This document shows, one piece after another, positions 2,930 to 54,236 of a DNA stretch of 64,000 nucleotides (position 1 is the stretch's first letter; the number at the start of each line of letters is the position of its first letter). A program made the position numbers and the translations under genes. Origin of the DNA: Candidatus Poribacteria bacterium (GTDB taxonomy: Bacteria; Poribacteria; WGA-4E; PCPOR2b). The notes below the pieces were generated by a model. The model saw only the letters and a list, made by a program, of their open reading frames with translations, had not been told where the DNA came from and ran no database searches. The stretch covers positions 672,001 to 736,000 of the forward strand of contig OZ244587.1 of assembly GCA_965218095.1 (NCBI GenBank). Direction: 5' to 3'.

Positions 2930-4045
2930 ATGCCCATTTTTTCCCTTGATAAATTCAAGTGCTCGGCTTTTGGTAAGTTTGATGCGGGAACTTGGACCGT
3001 AGCATATCATGACCGAAGTCATCTACCAAGAGATACCTACGTCTCGCTTGGAACAATTGAAGTTGAAGAATATACACAAAAAGGAGATTCTTTCTTCTAC
3101 TTTTGCCCCAACTCTTGTCAGCAGATTAAGTGTTTTATTGCTGATGCTTGGTGTAAAGGCAACGTTACTGGGCAAAAAGACCCAAAAGATACCGCCAAGA
3201 TTATTCTCGATCAGCTAAGTGAATCCATGGTGAGGTTAGGTCTTGTTCAGCCTAATTTTGAAATAGACGCACAAAATTTCATTACCGAGCGCAAGTTTGC
3301 AATCGTTGTATTAGATACAAACGCACTACGTGACGGTGCGATTCGTCATCTAAAGGAACAACTCGACAATGTACAATTGTGGACGATTATTCCGACAGTT
3401 GCCCTGATGGAGATTGGTGAGCGAATCGCCTATATAACCAGTAAAGACAAAGAGGGATGTAAACGTCAAAACAGTAGACTCATCCGTTTTCGACCTCAAG
3501 TCACAATCGCGCCCCAAGAAGTGAAGTGGATTCAAGAAAACTTCCCGACGGAAACTTTGGAACTTGCCCCAGAATTATTACGAACCTTTAGAGGATATGA
3601 CACAAGAAGAGAAAGCGAACCTGACAGAGTTTCCATTAATGACCGGCTCATCTTAGAAGGTATCAAAGATTTGCGACGGCAACGCAGTCTCCTAGAAGGA
3701 ATCTATCTAATGTCGAACGACAAGGATGTATCGCGGTTAGCTAGACTTGAAGGAATTAACACAATCTATCCTGCGATACCTGATATTCACGGGCTTTGCG
3801 ATCGCATCTATTCCCTTCGATATTCACTTGAAGTGCGCACCTACATTTCGTGTTCAATCCATCGCTTTCTTTGGGACTTGACACATGTTTTCAGCCAAAT
3901 CAAAGTGCAATCTACATCAGGATCGCAAGAGGGACAAGAATTGAAACTTTCTTATTATTATCCTGCTAAGTTGGTGAATGCTTGGATTGATGATAAGTTG
4001 GAGGTGACAGACCTTGGATCCAATTCTACCACCGACACTATTTGA
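2930..4045 (+). CDS. PIN-domain protein with N- and C-terminal extensions
   Basis: VVLDTNAL...IPTVALMEI...NDRLILE...LMSNDKDVSRLARLEGI carries the conserved acidic residues of PIN nucleases. Confidence 0.75.
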   Translation: MPIFSLDKFKCSAFGKFDAGTWTVAYHDRSHLPRDTYVSLGTIEVEEYTQKGDSFFYFCPNSCQQIKCFIADAWCKGNVTGQKDPKDTAKIILDQLSESMVRLGLVQPNFEIDAQNFITERKFAIVVLDTNALRDGAIRHLKEQLDNVQLWTIIPTVALMEIGERIAYITSKDKEGCKRQNSRLIRFRPQVTIAPQEVKWIQENFPTETLELAPELLRTFRGYDTRRESEPDRVSINDRLILEGIKDLRRQRSLLEGIYLMSNDKDVSRLARLEGINTIYPAIPDIHGLCDRIYSLRYSLEVRTYISCSIHRFLWDLTHVFSQIKVQSTSGSQEGQELKLSYYYPAKLVNAWIDDKLEVTDLGSNSTTDTI

Positions 4046-45600: not shown

Positions 45601-47700
45601 GTCGGTAATCCGTGTGCGAGGCGGAATCATCTCCGGATTAAAGCGGCTGACTCCGCCACTATCCTTACTGCCAAACCAGAGTCCCCCGTCCGCTTCGGTG
45701 ATTGCCGAGATGTTGTTACTGTTGAGCCCTTCGCTCGCAGTCAGTGTCCGCTCAAACCGACCGTTTTGGAATAGACTGACTCCATCAGCCGTTCCAATCC
45801 AGATCCGATTCCTTCCATCACGGTAAAGTGCCTGCACATGGTTATCCACCAATCCGTCAGTGGTTGTCAGTGAAGTGGTGAGACTTAACGTATCTTCGTC
45901 AAAAATCTGAATACCGGTATCTGTTCCGACCCAGGTCTCGCCGGTAGACGCTTCTAAAATGGTGTTAATCGAGAGTTGTTCAGGCAGGCTGTAGATTCGG
46001 TTCAAATTTAACCCGTCGTAAACCCACAGGTCGCTACCGCCTTCATCGTTCCCAACCGTTCCGAAGTACATCCGCCCCAGCGAGTCTGTGAACATAACGA
46101 CGATTGTCCGACCAATCTCCGGAAATAGATTCCTTTCCCATTGTATCCCGTCATAACGGTCTAAACCGGGGAGGTCATCTGTCGGCAAAAAACCCGTTCC
46201 GGTCCAAACATCGCCAACTGAATCGACGACGATCGATTGAACGCTATTGACGTTAATATCTGGAAGCCGAAAAATTTCCCATGAAACCCCATCGAAAACG
46301 CCAAGGCCGGCGTTAGTTCCAACCCAGATTCGCCCCCGAAAATCTTCGGCTAACGCGCGAATCTCATTTCCCGGAGGCCCACTGACCAACTCAACCCCAT
46401 TCATCGTATAGCGGCTCAATCCATTGCGCGTCCCAACCCAAAGCTCGCCCCGCCGGTCTGTCAACATCGCTGTCACACTGTCGTCGCTCAATCCGTTATC
46501 TGTAGTGATCGACTTCCATGACCGATCTGAAAAATTGACCCCATTATCGCGGGTCCCGACCCAGATCTCGCCGGTTCGTGTTTCAAACAGCGTCTGGATA
46601 TTGTTGCTTGCTAAACTATTTGCTCTTGTCAGATGACGCCAATGCCCGAAATCGCGGAGCACCGCAGGAGAGAATTGTGACGGCGTGCGAAATTGGCTAA
46701 CGCCGGCAGTTGTCCCGATCCAGATCGTTGCCTCCCTATCGCTCATTATGGATTGCACATTGTTTCCGATTAAGAGCCCATTCTGCGCCGTTACAACATG
46801 CCAGGTCAAACCGTCGTAAACCGCCGCGCCCCCCGTTGTGCCGACCCAGAGATTGCCGATGTGGTCTTCCAAAATTGCCTGCACGTCACCATTCGGTAAG
46901 CCATCGTTCACGCTAAAAATTTCCCACCCCACGCCATCGAAACGGCTGACAAGGTTCCCACTTTGGAGACGGTTGCTCCGTGAAAGTCCAAACCAGAGGT
47001 CCCCAACCTCATCCTCATAGATGACCTGTACGCCTTGATCGAGTTGTCCAACTGCCGCGTCATTGACAGGACACCAAATTTCGCCGTCAAACCAGTTGAC
47101 GCCAAGCGGCGTCCCGATCCAGATTTCACCATTTTGGCGCTGGATCATCGTCACAACACGCGCTCCGATACCGATCAATCCCCTTTCACCCGTATCGTGT
47201 TGCAGCCAGTCAATCTGTTGCCGTGAATCGTTCCATACACCTCGATAGACCCCCGCGTTTGTCGCAACCCAGATAAAGCCCGCAACGCCTTCAAAAACCT
47301 CGAAAACATCATTGTCTTGGGGGCCCCCGTCCGACATGCCGGCCTCGTGCCAGAAACCGTCCAAACGGCTCAAACCCTTGTCTGTCCCCAACCAGATTTG
47401 CCCGAATCGATCTTCAGTGATGGTTCTAACGTTGTTGCTGCTCAGACCATCGCCGATTCGCGTGAAATTTCGCCATTGGAAGTTTTGCTGGGCAAATGTG
47501 ACGCCGGGCGTCAGGAAGGAAAGAATAAGGAAAAGCGTGAAAGGTGACAGGTGAAACGTGAAGCGTAAAGTGTATTGGGAAAATAAGAGGAGGCGGAAAT
47601 GAGGAAATCGGGAGATGAAAAAATAGAGAAATGCGCTCATTGTGTAGATGTCCAAATTAACGACGCTGATCGCTTTGTTAGCATTTGGAGTTTTGGTCAA
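42694..47700 (-). CDS. Large secreted protein: two-component-regulator-type beta-propeller repeats, Ig-like repeats, C-terminal FlgD-like domain
   Basis: Many GLxxNxVxxxxEDxxGxIWxGT repeats, VDNTxP/DxAGN Ig-like repeats and C-terminal FSP...IYNEAGRLRR...WDGRD. Start position uncertain. Confidence 0.85.
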   Translation of the reverse strand: MTKTPNANKAISVVNLDIYTMSAFLYFFISRFPHFRLLLFSQYTLRFTFHLSPFTLFLILSFLTPGVTFAQQNFQWRNFTRIGDGLSSNNVRTITEDRFGQIWLGTDKGLSRLDGFWHEAGMSDGGPQDNDVFEVFEGVAGFIWVATNAGVYRGVWNDSRQQIDWLQHDTGERGLIGIGARVVTMIQRQNGEIWIGTPLGVNWFDGEIWCPVNDAAVGQLDQGVQVIYEDEVGDLWFGLSRSNRLQSGNLVSRFDGVGWEIFSVNDGLPNGDVQAILEDHIGNLWVGTTGGAAVYDGLTWHVVTAQNGLLIGNNVQSIMSDREATIWIGTTAGVSQFRTPSQFSPAVLRDFGHWRHLTRANSLASNNIQTLFETRTGEIWVGTRDNGVNFSDRSWKSITTDNGLSDDSVTAMLTDRRGELWVGTRNGLSRYTMNGVELVSGPPGNEIRALAEDFRGRIWVGTNAGLGVFDGVSWEIFRLPDINVNSVQSIVVDSVGDVWTGTGFLPTDDLPGLDRYDGIQWERNLFPEIGRTIVVMFTDSLGRMYFGTVGNDEGGSDLWVYDGLNLNRIYSLPEQLSINTILEASTGETWVGTDTGIQIFDEDTLSLTTSLTTTDGLVDNHVQALYRDGRNRIWIGTADGVSLFQNGRFERTLTASEGLNSNNISAITEADGGLWFGSKDSGGVSRFNPEMIPPRTRITDGPTNGEIVGDTSVVFKFEGGDASTPTGELHYVYQLDNGPPTPTDDGGLDKRALLSSLVEGQHRFIVHATDREGNVDAVGASAEFVIDSLAPSVSITNPKPEAVIGGVYEIEGTATDETDFLDYQIRIFPGDSVSGTPPPPFVSTVPVKGDTLYRWNTQTVADDLYAIRLVVRDTPNGQFDRQHRAAESVTVEVDNTLPRVKIKQPEDNASISGEAEIEIELADAHLSDYVLEYTSPPQTGASTEENGNNLDWIELARGTVTEGHTEVHRTINWNTSRFYGMILLRASVSDTAGNRGESALISVNLKNESAKPFVAILQPDGTQPIKGEVIIIGTVDVGTAQDAIIENFSLDYRPRPPNSEPSTGGIIRRGQSRFTEEEIARWNTNESGLPDGEYVLRLKATDSYGHPSTDEKIVTLDNTPPETVIEFPKDGAVLGAGSIEVIGTADDTHFEAYQLTFRALTGDEPEQIPTPSPIAAKRGATLAIWNPPQISGTYELRLDVQDGAGNQADDSVQVEIDANIPEVRISQPIDGQFVSEAVEIRGTADDAHLAWYRLEVRSMAGGEWQEIGTFTAPKREGVLGTWEPPKIDGEYEIRLIAQDQSGAGPVEARITVPVDGLLPQAEILSPTENQQLPQRIEIHGTANDRNFKEYTIEYGSGESPDGWLPISKPPAFSSPVTHDTLALWDAPNLSRLYTLRLRVKDKVGHESVARVIVFFSQRVAHERAGMAESQDGRAKIVFPPNSLLETTIVTVNPVPEGAANHVSQRSGVRYARAGSVRTHGEFTFHVYDFAPEDLQLHRLKPATIEFSVEDTATVFSRSKAKETLTIARWNGKTWLPIGGTIDTQRRTISTVVSMLGRYAITTRPAVKAEGNTIISDLTCQPRVFSPSRGSTRISFRLNRPDDITIKIYNEAGRLRRLLKESEPLSVGGHVFEWDGRDDENRRVVSNFYFVTVEGEGALGTKVVVVQNN

Positions 47701-47870
47701 CAGGCTCTTGAAGTGTGCATCCGAGAATCAGACAAATAGTTGGAAATGACAACCGTCGCTTCCTTACCCAGATATTGCTTTGCGAGAAATAGAGAGCGAG
47801 ACCTGTTTTTCATTGCGCCGCTACGCTCCTTCTATTTATAGTTTGTATCAAATGACCCCATGAGCTAAAC

Positions 47871-49869
47871 TATGGCGAACCCTATAAATAAGTAGACATT
47901 TTCTTATATTGCTGGTATCCTATAGTTATTATGAGGGGTGTGCATAAATATAGTTGACATAATCAAGCCAAAAGGGTTTCCTATTGTTATCATAGCAAAA
48001 GGAGCCCCAATATGGTACAAAGACCAATGTTGGCTGATTATGTCACTCTTATTATGCAACTCTTTGAGCAGTTTATGCAACACCGTATTGACAAACCAGG
48101 TGTCACACACGCAAAACCATTGACATATTCAACCACCTCGTTTATCATTTTCTTCATGTTGATGCAGTTTCACGGCATCTATGGCTTCAAAACGCAATGG
48201 CGGTGGCTAATCAATCACCCAGAAGTGTTACAAATGCTGGGGTGGCAACAGCCCCCTCATCGAACCACGATTGCACGTCGCTATAAGGCATTATATGAAG
48301 TGATAGAGGTATTTGTATTGTTTATCGGTCAGTATGCCACTGACTTGTCCCAACAATTCAACTTGGCTCATCTGGTAGCCGACAAAAGTTTATTTAAGGC
48401 ACGAGGACCCGTCTGGCATCAAACTGACCGCAAAGCAGGAAAAGTACCTAAACATCTACGCAACCTCGACACCGATGCCACGTGGAGCAAGAGTGGTTAT
48501 CATGGCTGGGTCTATGGCTACGGACTTCACATTATCTGCACACAAGGTGCGTTCCCAACACTGATAACTGTGCACCGTGCGTCGGTCTCCGAAAGTTGGG
48601 CGATAGATGCTAAAGCGTCTGAGATTCTGACACAACTTTCACCGCAGACACTCACTGCCGATGATGCCTATACCCAAGCAGACCGTATCCGTCGTTGGGC
48701 GAAGGCACAAGTCGCTTTGATTACCCCGGCACTTAGATGGACAAAGGGACGGTTTGCCAAGGCGTATCATCGATTTATCAACCAACCCAAGCAGCGTCTC
48801 TGTTTAAGCAAACGTCGCAGTTCGGTTGAACCGTTGTTTGACTTGATTGCTAAAGTGATAGGCGCCACTCCTCAACAGAAGCAGTTACCGGTCAAGGGGT
48901 TTTTCAATGTACGCTGTTGTTTAGCTATCGGGGTGTTATCAGTGCAAGTGGCTATGATTGCCAATGCCATATGGAAGTTACCTGCTCGCAATATCTCTCA
49001 TATGGCGGCTGTTTTCCAATGAACTACTATGCACACCCCTCAGTTATTATGGCCTATTCTTTAGATTTACGCAAACGCGTCTTAGATTTTATCGCAGCTG
49101 GCGGTGGCAAGACCGAAGCGAGCCGCCGTTTTTCCGTCGCCCGCTCAACGCTGTATAAGTGGTTGAATGCGCCTGACCCGCTCAAACGTCAGAAACCAGG
49201 GCCCCGTCGCCCGCGAACCCTTGACCCCGATGCGCTGAGAAAACATGTCGCTGATTTTCCAGACCAGACCTACGCCGAGCGCGCAGCTCATTTTGGTGTG
49301 TCAAAGTCTTGTATCGGGTATGGGCTGAAAAATATCGGTTGCACCCGAAAAAAAAGTCTCGGATATAAGGAGCAATGCGCTGAAAAACGACAAGCGTATC
49401 TTCAGCAACTCGCACAAGTGAAAGCCTCTGGTAAGTCTTTTGTTTATGTCGATGAGAGTGGGTTTCGAGACGAAAGTTATAGACGTTATGGGTATGCACC
49501 CAAAGGGGAAAAAGTCTTTGGACTTATCTCAAGCCAACGCACCCGGACAGCGACACTTATTGCGGCACGGGTGTTCAAAGGGAGCTGCAAAGCGGTAGAT
49601 TTCAATGACTGGTTAGCTGAACAGTTATGTCCACGTTTGACTTCAAAACAGGTTGTAATCCTTGATAATGCGCGGCTTCACAAAACACCTCGGACCCGAG
49701 AGTTGATAGAGGCTTCAGGAGCGAGTCTGATGTTCCTACCGCCTTATTCTCCAGATTACAATCCGATTGAACACGATTTTGCCAATATCAAGCGATACCG
49801 AGAATATCACCCCGAAACCACACTTCACGATATTATTCAAATGTACCATTAATTCTAAGATCTACCATA
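47871..49869 (+). mobile_element. IS630-family element copy 2 (transposase 49049-49852), interrupted by the 1109-bp IS
   Basis: Same ends and transposase as 15563-16443 (one visible V/A difference). TA at both ends. Confidence 0.92.
47933..49041 (+). mobile_element. Unclassified 1109-bp DDE insertion sequence copy 2 (transposase 48012-49022)
   Basis: Same IRs as copy 1, 9-bp TSD AGTTATTAT, one visible A/V difference from copy 1. Confidence 0.92.
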
Positions 49870-49917
49870 AAAGGAGATGGTATTGCCATCAACTACAATC
49901 CACTCATGGAGGTCAAT

Positions 49918-50718
49918 ATGAAACCACAAAGCAATACAGCCTACGGTATCAACCGTCTACAATCAAAGACCGCAAGGGCAGCCATCATTCAGAAGATTTC
50001 ATCAGACTTTAATCTAATGCCACTGATTGCCGAAGCCTACTATAAACAGATTGCTTCCTACTTTGCTCAACATGCCGAAATTGAACTCACGTCAGGCCAA
50101 ATCTGCTATGAGGCAGTCGCAGCCGATGAACCGGCAGGCAAACATATCGCGTTAGCGAAAAAAGTCTCATGTCAACTCACTCTCAATGATGTCCAAACTG
50201 ACCTTGAGATGTTAGCCGATTATGGGCTTTCTGGACTCAGACGCCATCGAATTCTCCGATTAACCAAACAAGCCTATGACCAAGATGCCCTGCTCAGCTA
50301 TGAAGATTTAGCGGTGCTATTAACCACCAGTCCAGCGACCGTCAAGCGCGACATTCGACAGTTGAAACAGGACGGTTACTTTGTTATGACTCGCGGTGCC
50401 AAACATGACATGGGGCCTGGCATCTCTCATAAGACTCAGATTCTGGAATTGTACTTCAAAGGGTATCAGTTCACTGAAATTGAGCAAAAGACTAATCATA
50501 CCCAACGAGCGGTCTGGCGATACTTGCGCGATTTCACACAGGTAGCAAGCCTCCATCATCAAGGCTTTCCAAAGGGACAGATACGGCTCATTACGCATCT
50601 ATCGGACCGACTAATTCGGGAGTATCTCTTGCTATATGATGAGTACCAACAAACACAACGAATGACTCAACTCCTTCACCCGGAACCGGTTGATGCGGAA
50701 AAGGGGAACCCCTCATGA
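49918..50718 (+). CDS. DUF1670-like HTH protein (ORF A, intact)
   Basis: GGAGG RBS. RILRLTKQAYDQDALLSYEDLAVLLTTSPATVKRDI...TRG..HDMGPGISHK..I...HT..AV.RY..DF. Confidence 0.75.
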   Translation: MKPQSNTAYGINRLQSKTARAAIIQKISSDFNLMPLIAEAYYKQIASYFAQHAEIELTSGQICYEAVAADEPAGKHIALAKKVSCQLTLNDVQTDLEMLADYGLSGLRRHRILRLTKQAYDQDALLSYEDLAVLLTTSPATVKRDIRQLKQDGYFVMTRGAKHDMGPGISHKTQILELYFKGYQFTEIEQKTNHTQRAVWRYLRDFTQVASLHHQGFPKGQIRLITHLSDRLIREYLLLYDEYQQTQRMTQLLHPEPVDAEKGNPS

Positions 50719-51607
50719 GTAAACCCTTGACTCGAACCGAAGTCAACGAGAAGAAATTCAGACGCCTCAATGATAAATCCCTGCAATAGCTACTAATTCA
50801 TCGCTTTATCAATTCTTACGGTTATGACAAAGGAGAAGTCACGGCGGCTGTCATTGTTGATGACATTGTCAAAACCATTGAAGGCTATTTCTTGATTGCC
50901 CTCCCCCTTGAGAAACTCGCCACAGGAGACCAAATCCCTAATCAGCGAATGCTCAGTTATGGGCAATTGGTCTGGATGGCTGTGCCGATTGATGAATACC
51001 CACAAAAAGGGAAGTCAATCGTCAAAACCGCTATGAAGCCGGTTGTTCTGACCTACCTCGCTTCTGAGGATATTGAATCCTTTCGCAACGGTTTTACTTC
51101 CCGGCAACTCAGAATCAATTGATTAGTCCGATGGTGTTATCAAGCCTATGACCAAGGCGCATTATTGACCCAACTCGACCTAGCTGTGTTGCTCAATATC
51201 TGTGATGCCATCGTCAGCGACTATGTCAATGAGTGGCAAAAAAATAGTGGAAAACTCTTGCCCACCCGGGGCAATATCCATGATTTATCGGGAGCGATTA
51301 CCCACAAGAAAGAGATTGTTACCCTCTATCTCCAAGGGCATCTGCTGCCAAAACCAGCCACTCTAAAGAAGCGGTTGACCGATACATTCGCGATTATGAG
51401 TCCGTTAAGACGGTTCGTGCCGCTACGGAGGATATTGACAAAATCTCTCAGATTACCCGGCTCTCCAAACGCGTCATCTCTCAATATCTTGACCTGATTC
51501 CTCAACATTCGCTTGATGACATGGACGCTAACTTAGCAACCGAATCAGAAAGCTGTAAAGATGCCAACACCCTGTTCCGTTCCGAACCTACAGGAGACCC
51601 CCAATGA
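50715..51607 (+). pseudogene. DUF1670-like protein (ORF B), disrupted
   Basis: ATGA overlap with ORF A. QAYDQGALLTQLDLAVLL...PTRGNIHDL...THK...HSKEAVDRYIRDY. TAG 50787, TGA 51120 and a frameshift near 51345. Confidence 0.75.
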
Positions 51608-51674
51608 TAAAATCGGACAAACGTTGCTTAGCGTTTTGCCCAACAAAACATCGTAATTTTACTTGAAGATTGGT

Positions 51675-51703
51675 TTGACACCCGCTATCTTTTTTGCTAT
51701 ACT
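51675..51703 (+). promoter_or_regulatory. Strong sigma70 promoter pointing to the right end of the DUF1670 element
   Basis: TTGACA-17 nt-TATACT with an extended -10 TG. Confidence 0.75.
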
Positions 51704-51707
51704 TCGT

Positions 51708-51834
51708 TACGCTTATATCCAAGCGTATCCATTTCTCGAAGGAGATGCGAGTTCACCCAATCCAACCCGCTCATGGGTGATGGCTGGAAGGCAATAGACA
51801 TCAGCATTCCAACCATCATCTGGTCATTTGATAC
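51708..51834 (+). ncRNA. Candidate structured ncRNA or 5' leader at the element right end
   Basis: Consecutive hairpins immediately after the promoter: 51708-51727, 51730-51747, 51753-51780 and the alternative 51776-51820. Confidence 0.45.
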
Positions 51835-54236
51835 TATTTCAGAATCAGCATTTTCTGTGTCGCAACAAAATCACCAGCTTTGAGTACATAAAAGTACACG
51901 CCGCTGGCAGCGTGCTCTCCCAATTGAGTACGTCCGTCCCAATAGGCCGCTCTTTCTTTGGTGATGTACTGTCCCGGTGGTTTCAGACCGAGCTCTAAAG
52001 TGCGCACCAACTGCCCCGCCATATTGTAAATCTCAATCAATACGGAGGAACCCTCCGCCAACTCGTAAGGCATCCAAACGTCCGGATTGAACGGATTCGG
52101 GTAACTTTGTAGCAACCGAGTACGGATTGGGGCCGCCGGAATATTCATCTCAGGCTTGAAGGTGGGGGTAAAGCCATTCAGTCCGATGCTCGGTGTGCCC
52201 ATGATGCCAAGCGCGTTCACAGGCACAACGGCGTAATAGTAGGTGACACTCTGTGGATTAAATGAGGGACTGCTTAGATCGAATTGCGCCCGGTCCAGAT
52301 CGACATCTTGAAATATCGTTGTGTCTTCAAAGCGGGTATCCGTCGCGTTGACACGCCTGACAATGTTGATGTCGCTGTCAGGGATGCCGTTCTCATCACG
52401 GTCTGCGGCATTCAAAACCTCCGCCGCGCTCTGGAGTGGCTGCGGGTCGTCGGTATTGATGAACGCGGCGTGCCGCTTGCGGACAATAACTATCTCACGA
52501 ATATCTGTCAGATCTTCAAGCTCCCATTGTACAAGCACGCCGTTGTTGCCTTCCGAAACAGTCGGCGTTGAGAGCTTCCCAGCCGGTGGACGACCGGCCA
52601 TATAGCTCACAGAACCACCGAAATAGCCGCCACCGGGGATAACGACATGTTCGATATCCGGGCGGACGTTGATTAGGATCAGCGTAATCTTCTCAATCTC
52701 GCCCCCAAAATCTTTGAACGTGATCTGCGCTTCCTGAGAACGATGATAAGTGAACGCCTCTCGAACTTCAGTTATCCCATCGCGTCTTTCAACGATAAAC
52801 TTCGCGCCCCAACCGCGCAAACCGGTAATATCGTGCCGATCCAATTCCTGCTGAATTGCATTGCGATCCGCGAGGCTGAGAGCATCTATGTCAATCGGGG
52901 CGAGGTCTGTGCCATCAACCTTAACCGCGAATTCCTTCATCACAACACCAAGCGCAGGTTCAAAGACAATATAGCGAGCCGAGAAGGGTTCTGGCATCGC
53001 CTCTGAATCAAAATCAACGCGGACGGGATAGGCGTTATGCACATCAGTCGGATGAATGGCGACCGGCGGGAAACGGTGCCCGTTGAAGTAGTGCTGCTTG
53101 TCATCACGGTCATCAGTAAAGTAATTCCACTCGGTGAAGGTCTTAAACACCTCAACAAGCGTTGTACCGTGATCTGTGAACACCTGCGAAAAGTTACCGT
53201 ATTCGCGGAAGCTGCCTTCTGTTGTATTTCCATAAAACTGCCTGATGATATCGACATCAAATCGCTCCGCCATATAAAGCGCCCAGATCACAGCCGCGTA
53301 CTCGTGCAAACCAACGCGGCTATCAAGGGCAATGTCAGGCTGACGCAAAAAAATGTCAAGCTGTCTGGCATAGTAGTTATACGCATCGGTCTCACCAATC
53401 TCATCGGGGTCTGGGATATCGTCGAGATCGTCAATCCGTCCGCCGTCATATACCTTCGACTCAATCCATGTGGCAGAGGCTTCCATAAACCATGTTGGCA
53501 TTCGCGCATTATAGCCAAACTGAACGCCGTGGATGAACTCATGGGCGCACGTCGTTTCAATGAATCGGATGCCTTCAGATCTTCCGAAAAAGTCATATAT
53601 ACGGGAATTGATCGCGAAATAGGGGCCAAAGGTCGCAACGGTTGATAACACCCGCCCATTGTACCAGTCTACTGTTGTGAAGCCAAGCGCAGGAAACATG
53701 AACAGATATACGTCGTATTTATGATTGCCACCATTTTCAGCCACCCAAAAATCGTCAAACGGCTGCTTAAAGCCCATCAGATCCACTTCAACATGGAAAG
53801 AGCGCTCCATCGCCTCCGCACAAATATCGACGAAATCCGGGACGCCGTTCATCGGATTGAGATCTTCAAGCGGCGGTGCATTGAGGCCGACAGTGGTATA
53901 GTGGAACCGAAAGTGCGGTGTGTCAAACTTCTTGGGCAGGTAAACAGAACCGTAGGCGCTGCCGGGCAGCCCCGGGCGCAGGAAAATCCCCTGAAACTCC
54001 CGTTGATAGATCGCTGGAAGGTGATTCCAGTTTCTGGCGAGGATATTGAAGCTGTCCGTAAAGCACTTCTCAATTTCGCTGGGCGCGTAACTCGGTTTGA
54101 GGTTAATATACTTTCGGACAGTCCGAATTGCGCTATGCAGTTCCGGATCGGGGGGGAGTGCGTCAACAAATAAGGGCGTAAAGACGAAAAATCCGACGGT
54201 CAATAAAATAAATAAGCACAATCTCAAGCGGTTCAC
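51834..54236 (-). CDS. Secreted zinc metalloprotease (MXAN_6640-like) with C-terminal FlgD/T9SS-like sorting domain
   Basis: Signal peptide, AHEFIHGVQFGY...WFMEASATW and C-terminal QSYPNPFNP...YWDGR..GE..ASGVYFY...KMLILK. Confidence 0.85.
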   Translation of the reverse strand: MNRLRLCLFILLTVGFFVFTPLFVDALPPDPELHSAIRTVRKYINLKPSYAPSEIEKCFTDSFNILARNWNHLPAIYQREFQGIFLRPGLPGSAYGSVYLPKKFDTPHFRFHYTTVGLNAPPLEDLNPMNGVPDFVDICAEAMERSFHVEVDLMGFKQPFDDFWVAENGGNHKYDVYLFMFPALGFTTVDWYNGRVLSTVATFGPYFAINSRIYDFFGRSEGIRFIETTCAHEFIHGVQFGYNARMPTWFMEASATWIESKVYDGGRIDDLDDIPDPDEIGETDAYNYYARQLDIFLRQPDIALDSRVGLHEYAAVIWALYMAERFDVDIIRQFYGNTTEGSFREYGNFSQVFTDHGTTLVEVFKTFTEWNYFTDDRDDKQHYFNGHRFPPVAIHPTDVHNAYPVRVDFDSEAMPEPFSARYIVFEPALGVVMKEFAVKVDGTDLAPIDIDALSLADRNAIQQELDRHDITGLRGWGAKFIVERRDGITEVREAFTYHRSQEAQITFKDFGGEIEKITLILINVRPDIEHVVIPGGGYFGGSVSYMAGRPPAGKLSTPTVSEGNNGVLVQWELEDLTDIREIVIVRKRHAAFINTDDPQPLQSAAEVLNAADRDENGIPDSDINIVRRVNATDTRFEDTTIFQDVDLDRAQFDLSSPSFNPQSVTYYYAVVPVNALGIMGTPSIGLNGFTPTFKPEMNIPAAPIRTRLLQSYPNPFNPDVWMPYELAEGSSVLIEIYNMAGQLVRTLELGLKPPGQYITKERAAYWDGRTQLGEHAASGVYFYVLKAGDFVATQKMLILK

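Follow-up and report, generated by a model that had tools for sequence, protein, structure and literature searches.

A conserved outward promoter in the right end of a small DUF1670 mobile element of sponge bacteria and its possible regulatory transcript

Promoters and small RNAs located inside the ends of transposons are known. In IS10, the outward promoter pOUT lies inside an end of the insertion sequence and yields a stem-loop RNA, RNA-OUT; this end is the transposase-proximal one and RNA-OUT is antisense to the start of the transposase mRNA. The locus described here belongs to a stretch of 64,000 nucleotides from a Candidatus Poribacteria genome (contig OZ244587.1, hereafter the window) and resembles the IS10 arrangement in having an outward promoter in an element end and a predicted stem-loop RNA behind it; the same IS10 end also guards against transcription coming from outside. 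Unlike in IS10, the promoter is distal here, and no conserved complementarity to the start of ORF A or to any other site of the element was found. The interval under study is the right end of an insertion element of about 2.0 kb with two genes for DUF1670 proteins built of several helix-turn-helix modules. This small mobile element of sponge bacteria is undescribed: in the literature searched, no paper mentions DUF1670 or PF07900, and a literature search combining Poribacteria with insertion sequence or transposase returned unrelated papers only. With a confidence that falls a little short of even, we propose that an outward promoter overlies the end-recognition DNA of the DUF1670 element and that its transcript would be regulatory and not a guide RNA.

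Positions 51675..51834 had been assigned to the right end of a DUF1670 element by the first-pass annotation. They do belong to this right end, but the true tip lies at 51839 instead of 51834 and the element starts at 47838 (Table 1). The window copy (47838-51839) is broken up by nested IS630-like and IS5-like elements, the IS630-like insertion interrupting the first part of the left end after 47872, and an uninterrupted copy measures 2005 bp between the corrected ends. BLAST of pieces of the element against the whole genome located four copies in the host, while a fifth site retains the last 28 nt of the right end only. The element has several copies with identical ends at different loci, terminal inverted repeats and empty sites, as expected of an insertion sequence. 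The nested 1111-bp DDE element has itself 49 full-length copies in the genome among the matches listed, the window's own included.

Table 1. Features of the window copy of the DUF1670 element (window coordinates)
Feature	Position	Strand	Evidence or remark
Original Lys-stop of the host gene, displaced: CTATTT (AAA TAG on the minus strand)	47832..47837	-	Left junction
Left end, first part: ATAGTTT, inverted repeat GTATCAAATGACC (47845-57), anti-Shine-Dalgarno CCCATGAGC (47857-65)	47838..47872	+	
Unrelated nested insertions: IS630-family element (TA duplication), itself split by a DDE_Tnp_1 element	47873..49867	+	
DDE_Tnp_1 element, 1111 bp, inverted repeat TGAGGGGTGTGCATA, flanking repeat GTTATTA	47932-49042		Inside the IS630-family element
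Left end, second part: palindrome GATGG..CCATC (49876-90), CTCATGG (49903-09), Shine-Dalgarno GGAGG (49908-12)	49868..49917	+	
ORF A, DUF1670, 266 aa (270 aa with start at 49906)	49918..50718	+	Pfam PF07900, E 7.9e-63
ORF B, second DUF1670 gene, broken	50715..51607	+	TAG 50787, TGA 51120, 13-nt deletion 51343
Outward promoter Pout: TTGACA, 17 nt, TGc, TATACT	51675..51703	+	Promoter scan and conservation
Predicted transcript body within the element	51709..51839	+	Putative start, placed by the -10 hexamer
5' palindromic module: hairpins ACGCTT/AAGCGT and CATTTCT/GGAGATG	51709..51747	+	
GCTCATGGG, complementary to left-end CCCATGAGC	51769..51777	+	
Long terminal palindrome/hairpin GGTGATGGCTGGAAGGC ... 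GCATTCCAACCATCATC	51776..51820	+	
Right inverted repeat GGTCATTTGATAC plus terminal TATTT	51822..51839	+	
Element-borne Lys-stop (AAA TAG) of host gene 51834..54236	51834-51839	-	

Relatives of the element were collected with ORF A as a query, which returned 56 loci, all of them in Candidatus Poribacteria MAGs, with protein identities of 67-93% and DNA identities of 74-86% over the whole element length. A profile search gave 210 relatives, and the best 80 of these 210 (Poribacteria MAGs) were retained. More than 100 loci were fetched from Poribacteria MAGs; the 122 elements extracted from them, some loci having been taken twice, correspond to 61 distinct sequences. Eight loci come from other lineages (Gemmatimonadota, Zixibacteria, Eisenbacteria, Melioribacteraceae, Fibrobacteraceae and an unclassified MAG). 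Beyond the 13-nt inverted repeat, ATAGTTT is always found on the left and TATTT always on the right.

Three observations concern the surroundings of the ends. A solo right-end tip (G000:C1:665855-665882) marks the end of another secretion-tail gene, some 6 kb ahead of the window, and in locus L017 (around 3918-3936) an 18-nt solo right-end tip stands directly before a full left end; such tips of 18-28 nt may be what is left of lost copies, or sites where the element prefers to land. Two copies, that of the window and that at 1916089-1918093 of G000:C1, have in common the 16 nt TACGCTCCTTCTATTT immediately outside the left end (window 47822-47837). Their right flanks differ, and flank sequence may have been carried along.

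The target gene in the window (51834..54236, minus strand) matches the FlgD_ig and Por_Secre_tail families. Another type of target is given by hairpins: one MAG contains 44 empty ones, which read AACCGAGTTTTTT and CTTCAAAACTCGGTT on the two sides of the insertion point, and occupied ones read ...GAGTTTTTT before ATAG...CTATTT and CTTCAAAAC after it. The element therefore extends from ATAG to CTATTT and is inserted without target duplication. Of the 85 distinct insertion sites, 14 are loops of REP-like hairpins. At 64 of the 85 the last letters of the left flank are a Lys codon plus stop in reverse complement, and at 62 the right flank is open for 81 codons, with the typical end ...GDFTATRKMLILK; the element thus usually enters a convergent secretion-tail gene after its penultimate codon, directly ahead of the final Lys codon. 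The element tip CTATTT supplies a new AAA TAG to this secretion-tail (CTD) host gene. Outside Poribacteria, the tips of the distant relatives, as read from their sequences, are CTATTT, CTATCT, CTATCG or CTACCG; they encode Lys-stop or Arg-stop, in agreement with host tails ending in K or R. The elements from Gemmatimonadota, Zixibacteria, Eisenbacteria, Melioribacteraceae and an unclassified MAG (among L157-L164) share inverted repeat and target; the Fibrobacteraceae contig (L164) stops before the right end and lies outside the target comparison.

ORF A overlaps the second DUF1670 frame, ORF B, by ATGA, and both ORFs are intact in most relatives (about 270 aa for ORF A, 285-302 aa for ORF B). 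In this genome, ORF B carries three lesions (codon 25 changed from CAG to TAG, codon 136 from CGA to TGA, and the 13-nt deletion at 51343) that are identical in all four copies. These copies occupy different loci and are 99.8-100% identical, a pattern that would arise either if they spread after ORF B broke or if they were homogenised later. Contigs from sponge-community RNA libraries carry a version of ORF B without the 13-nt deletion.

Both proteins match only DUF1670 and helix-turn-helix families in Pfam and NCBIfam scans. Domain scans of ORF A, ORF B and their relatives revealed no known catalytic domain, with no RuvC, HNH or HUH match in Pfam, and no DEDD-type recombinase was found in the scans of either ORF. 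For ORF A, the AlphaFold model (pLDDT 90.7, from a 73-row alignment) has helix-turn-helix modules only, arranged as an N-terminal part with helix and beta-hairpin, a winged helix (residues ~103-165) and a TrpR-like helical module (~168-255). Foldseek returned nothing at E 0.001 or better for this model, and a wide structural search gave winged-helix and TrpR-like matches only (Z <= 6.7), which barely cover residues 1-95; ESM Atlas led to DUF1670 clusters only. HMMER retrieved 1227 relatives from 1.84 billion representatives. Among them are fused proteins of about 500-950 aa in which two or three DUF1670 modules follow one another (P0132, P0135, P0138, P0163), which suggests that ORF A and ORF B act together.

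The first-pass annotation had described, in the right end of the DUF1670 element, a near-consensus extended promoter that points outward with hairpins behind it, and this description is borne out, the promoter being also conserved in the relatives. It is of the sigma-70 type. Its -35 hexamer TTGACA (51675-51680), 17-nt spacer, TGc and -10 hexamer TATACT (51698-51703) agree with the consensus at 11 of 12 positions in addition to the extended TG. Both hexamers are kept in 61/61 distinct elements and the TG in 60/61, with a variable spacer between the hexamers; the promoter pattern used for this count matched 55 of the 61, and the six others have TTGATA, 17 nt and then TGT-TATACT, TGC-TATACT or TGC-TATAAT. 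Judging from the sequence, we take the outward promoter of the right end to be real.

From this promoter, transcription would start near 51709 and proceed through two palindromic modules and the terminal inverted repeat. A terminator scan of the plus strand after the stems found none, and the transcript would therefore run on into the 3' end of the host gene as an antisense RNA. In the explanation that we favour, the hairpins would be mainly the palindromic architecture of the element end, probably binding sites for the DUF1670 proteins, and the transcript would simply inherit them. It would be regulatory, and most likely would oppose transcription of the host gene that enters the element antisense to ORF B and ORF A; alternatively, it may couple the activity of the end to transcription. 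The insulating or antisense job is suggested by the geometry alone, and it is a point against it that the promoter is also kept by elements inserted in hairpins, whose right end faces no host gene.

Four other explanations were weighed, which we rank in the following order of likelihood: a discrete small RNA, a leader spanning joined ends, a promoter arisen by chance and a guide RNA. The first of them depends on the hairpins of the right end. All the hairpin motifs listed in the first-pass annotation were found in place: ACGCTT/AAGCGT (51709-14/51721-26), CATTTCT/GGAGATG (51730-36/51741-47), TCACCCA/TGGGTGA (51753-59/51774-80) and the long stem (51776-92/51804-20). When 51709-51840 is folded alone, the ACGCUU/AAGCGU hairpin, a hairpin over CAUUUCU/GGAGAUG and the long stem pairing 51776-92 with 51804-20 are predicted. 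This fold is weakly better than that of shuffled sequences (z of -1.9 and -1.7 in two runs, with 8/200 and 12/200 shuffles as good), and ten right ends folded singly gave z values from -3.8 to +1.0, four of them at or below -2.4. In an alignment of 19 sequences, the helices of the first-pass annotation are paired in 67%, 73% and 72% of cells, with a covariation that is not above shuffles (85/500 reach it). The stem TCACCCA/TGGGTGA, proposed as a mutually exclusive pairing, is paired in 43.6% of cells only and does not hold as a conserved helix.

A larger set of 41 distinct right ends, for which the helices were taken from the largest sequence group, gave a clearer picture: the helices are paired in 81.8% of cells, a figure that drops to 35-49% if the partner is slid, covariation scores 0.157 compared with 0.125 for shuffled alignments (0/500 reach it) and G-U cells number 122 against 70 A-C cells. 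The helices of the 5' module are 78-87% paired, and the first of them has five pairs, four of which change on both sides; the long terminal helix is 80% paired, with no change on both sides. This long terminal hairpin is the constant part across sequence groups, the 3' part of the right end forming at least 10 pairs in 42/43 distinct right ends, and the 5' module differs by group, the subgroup with a 33-nt deletion bearing another hairpin there. The left end has a small palindrome with its stem motif GATGG/CCATC, for which one compensatory variant, GATGA/TCATC, is seen. As far as their sequences tell, the right-end hairpins are conserved palindromes, which may function at the RNA level, as hairpins in DNA or as binding sites in the duplex; those downstream of the promoter may be DNA palindromes. 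A small ORF after GGAGATG (11 codons here) was also considered and rejected, with no ATG at this place in group II right ends, as read from the alignment, and a Shine-Dalgarno spacing of about 0.

Taken together, the pairing, the covariation, the excess of G-U and the low z values of four of the ten right ends are RNA-like, and a discrete structured RNA is therefore possible. It would be a regulatory RNA of about 130 nt that pairs with some mRNA: a hairpin would stabilise its 5' end, the conserved C/A-rich linker CCAACnCAACCCnCTCAT would stay single-stranded and serve as the seed, and a second hairpin would form the 3' part. The succession of 5' hairpin, linker and long 3' hairpin is found in all sequence groups, the deletion subgroup included, and it comes behind a strong and conserved promoter and with a modest covariation. 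However, the 3' hairpin is followed by no terminator, and RNAalifold gives essentially no consensus structure (-1.32 kcal/mol for 19 right ends, -0.3 kcal/mol for 41). The minus strand folds equally well or better: the reverse complement is the more stable in 32/43 right ends for the 3' part and in 38/43 for the 5' part. Within the element there is no conserved complementary site of at least 8 nt, the best position being present in 12/61 elements, and Rfam has no relevant match on either strand of 47700-52000, the sole hit lying outside the interval with E 0.66, far below the gathering score. We thus regard a discrete small RNA as unlikely, although it is the rival that survives best.

In four metatranscriptome runs of one sponge study, assembled contigs extend over both ORFs and the right end. 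They cover the whole element at similar depth, show neither transcript starts nor strand nor level, and may come from DNA carry-over. In three of the runs, exact-match contigs stop at 51839-51841, which fits the repeat boundary.

The second rival concerns the left end. GCTCATGGG (51769-77) had been noted as the reverse complement of the left-end CCCATGAGC (47857-65). This match is present in the window copy, but it does not stand as a conserved feature: among 47 distinct end pairs it is 9 nt long in one, 8 nt in two, 7 nt in one, 6 nt in 27, 5 nt in nine and at most 4 nt in seven, the 9-nt match being that of this genome's element only, and the relatives share only its CTCAT/ACTCA core. A better-conserved mate lies in the left end itself. 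There, CCCATGAG pairs with CTCATGG and the Shine-Dalgarno over at least 6 nt in 35/39 left ends, CCATGAG pairing with the CTCATGG that abuts the Shine-Dalgarno GGAGG of ORF A; the corresponding conserved long-range helix joins GACCCCATGAG with CTCATGGAGGTC (47853-47865 with 49903-49915). According to the folding predictions, this helix buries the ribosome site of ORF A only in transcripts that enter from outside: the predicted mean unpaired probability of the Shine-Dalgarno is 0.20 in transcripts that read through from the left flank. The left end also has a candidate promoter of its own, TTGTAT-17-TAAACT (or TATACT), and for transcripts from it the value is 0.40.

The first-pass annotation had offered, as one possibility, a leader that switches on ORF A after circularisation by pairing with the strand opposing the ribosome site. 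Stated more fully, the right-end promoter would drive ORF A and ORF B only once a circle or a tandem copy has brought the two ends together, following the junction-dependent expression of other insertion sequences, and the right-end CTCATGG would capture the anti-Shine-Dalgarno strand. This strand does exist, in the left-end helix, and is matched over 9 nt by the right end of this genome's copy; moreover, a complete near-consensus promoter points out of an element which, moving without target duplication, may do so via joined ends. Against this, the predicted freeing of the Shine-Dalgarno is slight: its unpaired probability in transcripts from the right-end promoter across joined ends is 0.27 compared with 0.21 with a shuffled right end, and falls to 0.08 in the joint-spanning transcript of this genome's copy. 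The motif match is at most 6 nt in 43/47 variants, and a switch by the right-end motif is not supported at the predicted folding equilibrium. As for the joints themselves, the exact 24-nt junction string matches one locus in the genome collection, the L017 remnant where 18 nt resembling the right end lie beside a left end, and none in the metagenome collection. Such a leader is accordingly, in our estimation, clearly less probable than the small RNA.

A promoter without selected function, be it a chance site or a protein-binding site that resembles a promoter, has in its favour that promoter-like matches are common, with 6 found and 7.4 expected in a scan of the 4.4-kb region. It does not account for the pattern of conservation. 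When 24 distinct right ends are aligned, the TG-preceded -10 is prominent, as are the first three letters (TTG) of the -35, and the intervening spacer is variable, and the whole stands beside a poorly conserved stretch: conservation is 0.48-0.62 in the spacer that follows the conserved part of ORF B and 0.69-0.87 from the promoter to the tip. The site also fits a consensus that is over-represented in the host. The pattern TTGACA-N13-15-TGnTA[TC]A[AC]T occurs at 60 sites of the 6.35-Mb genome, four of them in copies of the element, against about 0.6 expected with equal base frequencies, so that the right end bears the host's own strong-promoter consensus; indeed, this pattern with its extended -10 looks like the strong-promoter consensus of the organism. 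We find a functionless promoter very improbable. One of the 60 sites is at about 56439 of the window, on the minus strand.

The other possibility raised by the first-pass annotation, a guide-like RNA for the DUF1670 proteins, would act as a guide- or bridge-like cofactor with which these proteins recognise target or donor DNA. Several traits recall the RNA-guided families of insertion sequences: the putative RNA lies in a non-coding end and crosses the boundary, the element is site-specific, duplication-free and able to target hairpin repeats, and the DUF1670 proteins have no known catalytic or target-reading fold beyond their helix-turn-helix modules. Its complementarity, however, does not follow the target. 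With 85 reconstructed empty sites, the longest Watson-Crick match of the right-end transcript averages 6.77 nt to the element's own targets and 6.66 nt to the targets of other elements, and shuffled sequence resembles the target consensus as much as the right-end body does. Two near-identical lineages with closely similar right ends use both target types, hairpins for L025 and a secretion-tail gene for L030. A hidden copy of the target in the right end, to which a 9-nt identity with the flank of this copy could point, was rejected, the alignment scores being equal to those of shuffled controls.

The distant relatives point in the same direction. In five phyla besides Poribacteria, DUF1670 elements go to the same target but lack the promoter-hairpin RNA module, and their non-coding right ends are 8-101 nt long in the Gemmatimonadota, Zixibacteria, Eisenbacteria and unclassified-MAG elements that were measured. 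A covariance model built from 41 right ends scores 131 bits on the window and 53-62 bits on a divergent Poribacteria subgroup, and in distant elements it finds the terminal inverted repeat only (E 0.03-0.22). The module is therefore clade-specific and the choice of target is family-wide, and we consider a guide RNA the least probable of all the explanations. A related and bolder idea, to which we would also give very little credence, is that the DUF1670 proteins are a new kind of recombinase and that the right-end RNA was recruited in the sponge-bacterium clade as a cofactor for recognising the ends or pairing them with the conserved 3' end of secretion-tail genes. The first half of it draws on the lack of a known catalytic fold in proteins of an element that moves site-specifically and without duplication, which may indicate a new kind of recombinase; if the whole were true, an RNA cofactor working with a DUF1670 recombinase would be the third independent case of RNA-assisted transposition.

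The comparison with known systems can be extended beyond IS10. The omega RNAs of IS200/IS605 TnpB and of IscB derive from the right end, have the sense of the gene and cross the boundary into the flank, as predicted here, and IS200/IS605 elements, like the present one, insert beside a short motif without duplication. In contrast with TnpB and IscB, ORF A and ORF B have no RuvC, HNH or HUH match in Pfam (the fold search concerns the ORF A model only), and the RNA predicted here has its own promoter in the spacer after the genes, which distant members of the family do not have. The bridge RNAs of IS110/IS1111 are likewise non-coding RNAs of an element end, in elements that are site-specific and duplication-free, sometimes insert in REP-type hairpins and are flanked at both junctions by the same short core, TT in the DUF1670 element. 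The latter differs from them in having no DEDD recombinase, no Rfam hit and no loops that match target or donor above chance. IS911, IS30 and IS2 form junction promoters, and share with the present element outward promoter elements in the right end and a possible joined-end form; here, however, the promoter is not split between the ends but lies whole in the right one, about 130 nt from its tip, a separate candidate promoter is present in the left end, and no joined form was found.

Finally, the protection of IS10 and IS50 by anti-Shine-Dalgarno pairing is resembled by the left-end GACCCCATGAG/CTCATGGAGGTC helix, which is likewise predicted only in entering transcripts. This likeness concerns the left end and not the interval 51675..51834, and it explains the left-hand partner of the 9-nt match. 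Set among these systems, the larger prize is the DUF1670 element family itself, which extends over at least six phyla, possesses helix-turn-helix proteins only and inserts with single-codon precision at the ends of secretion-tail genes, whose last codon and stop it rebuilds. The conserved right-end promoter and the failure of the first guide tests indicate what to mutate first, and natural variants are at hand for dissecting a possibly new transposition chemistry.
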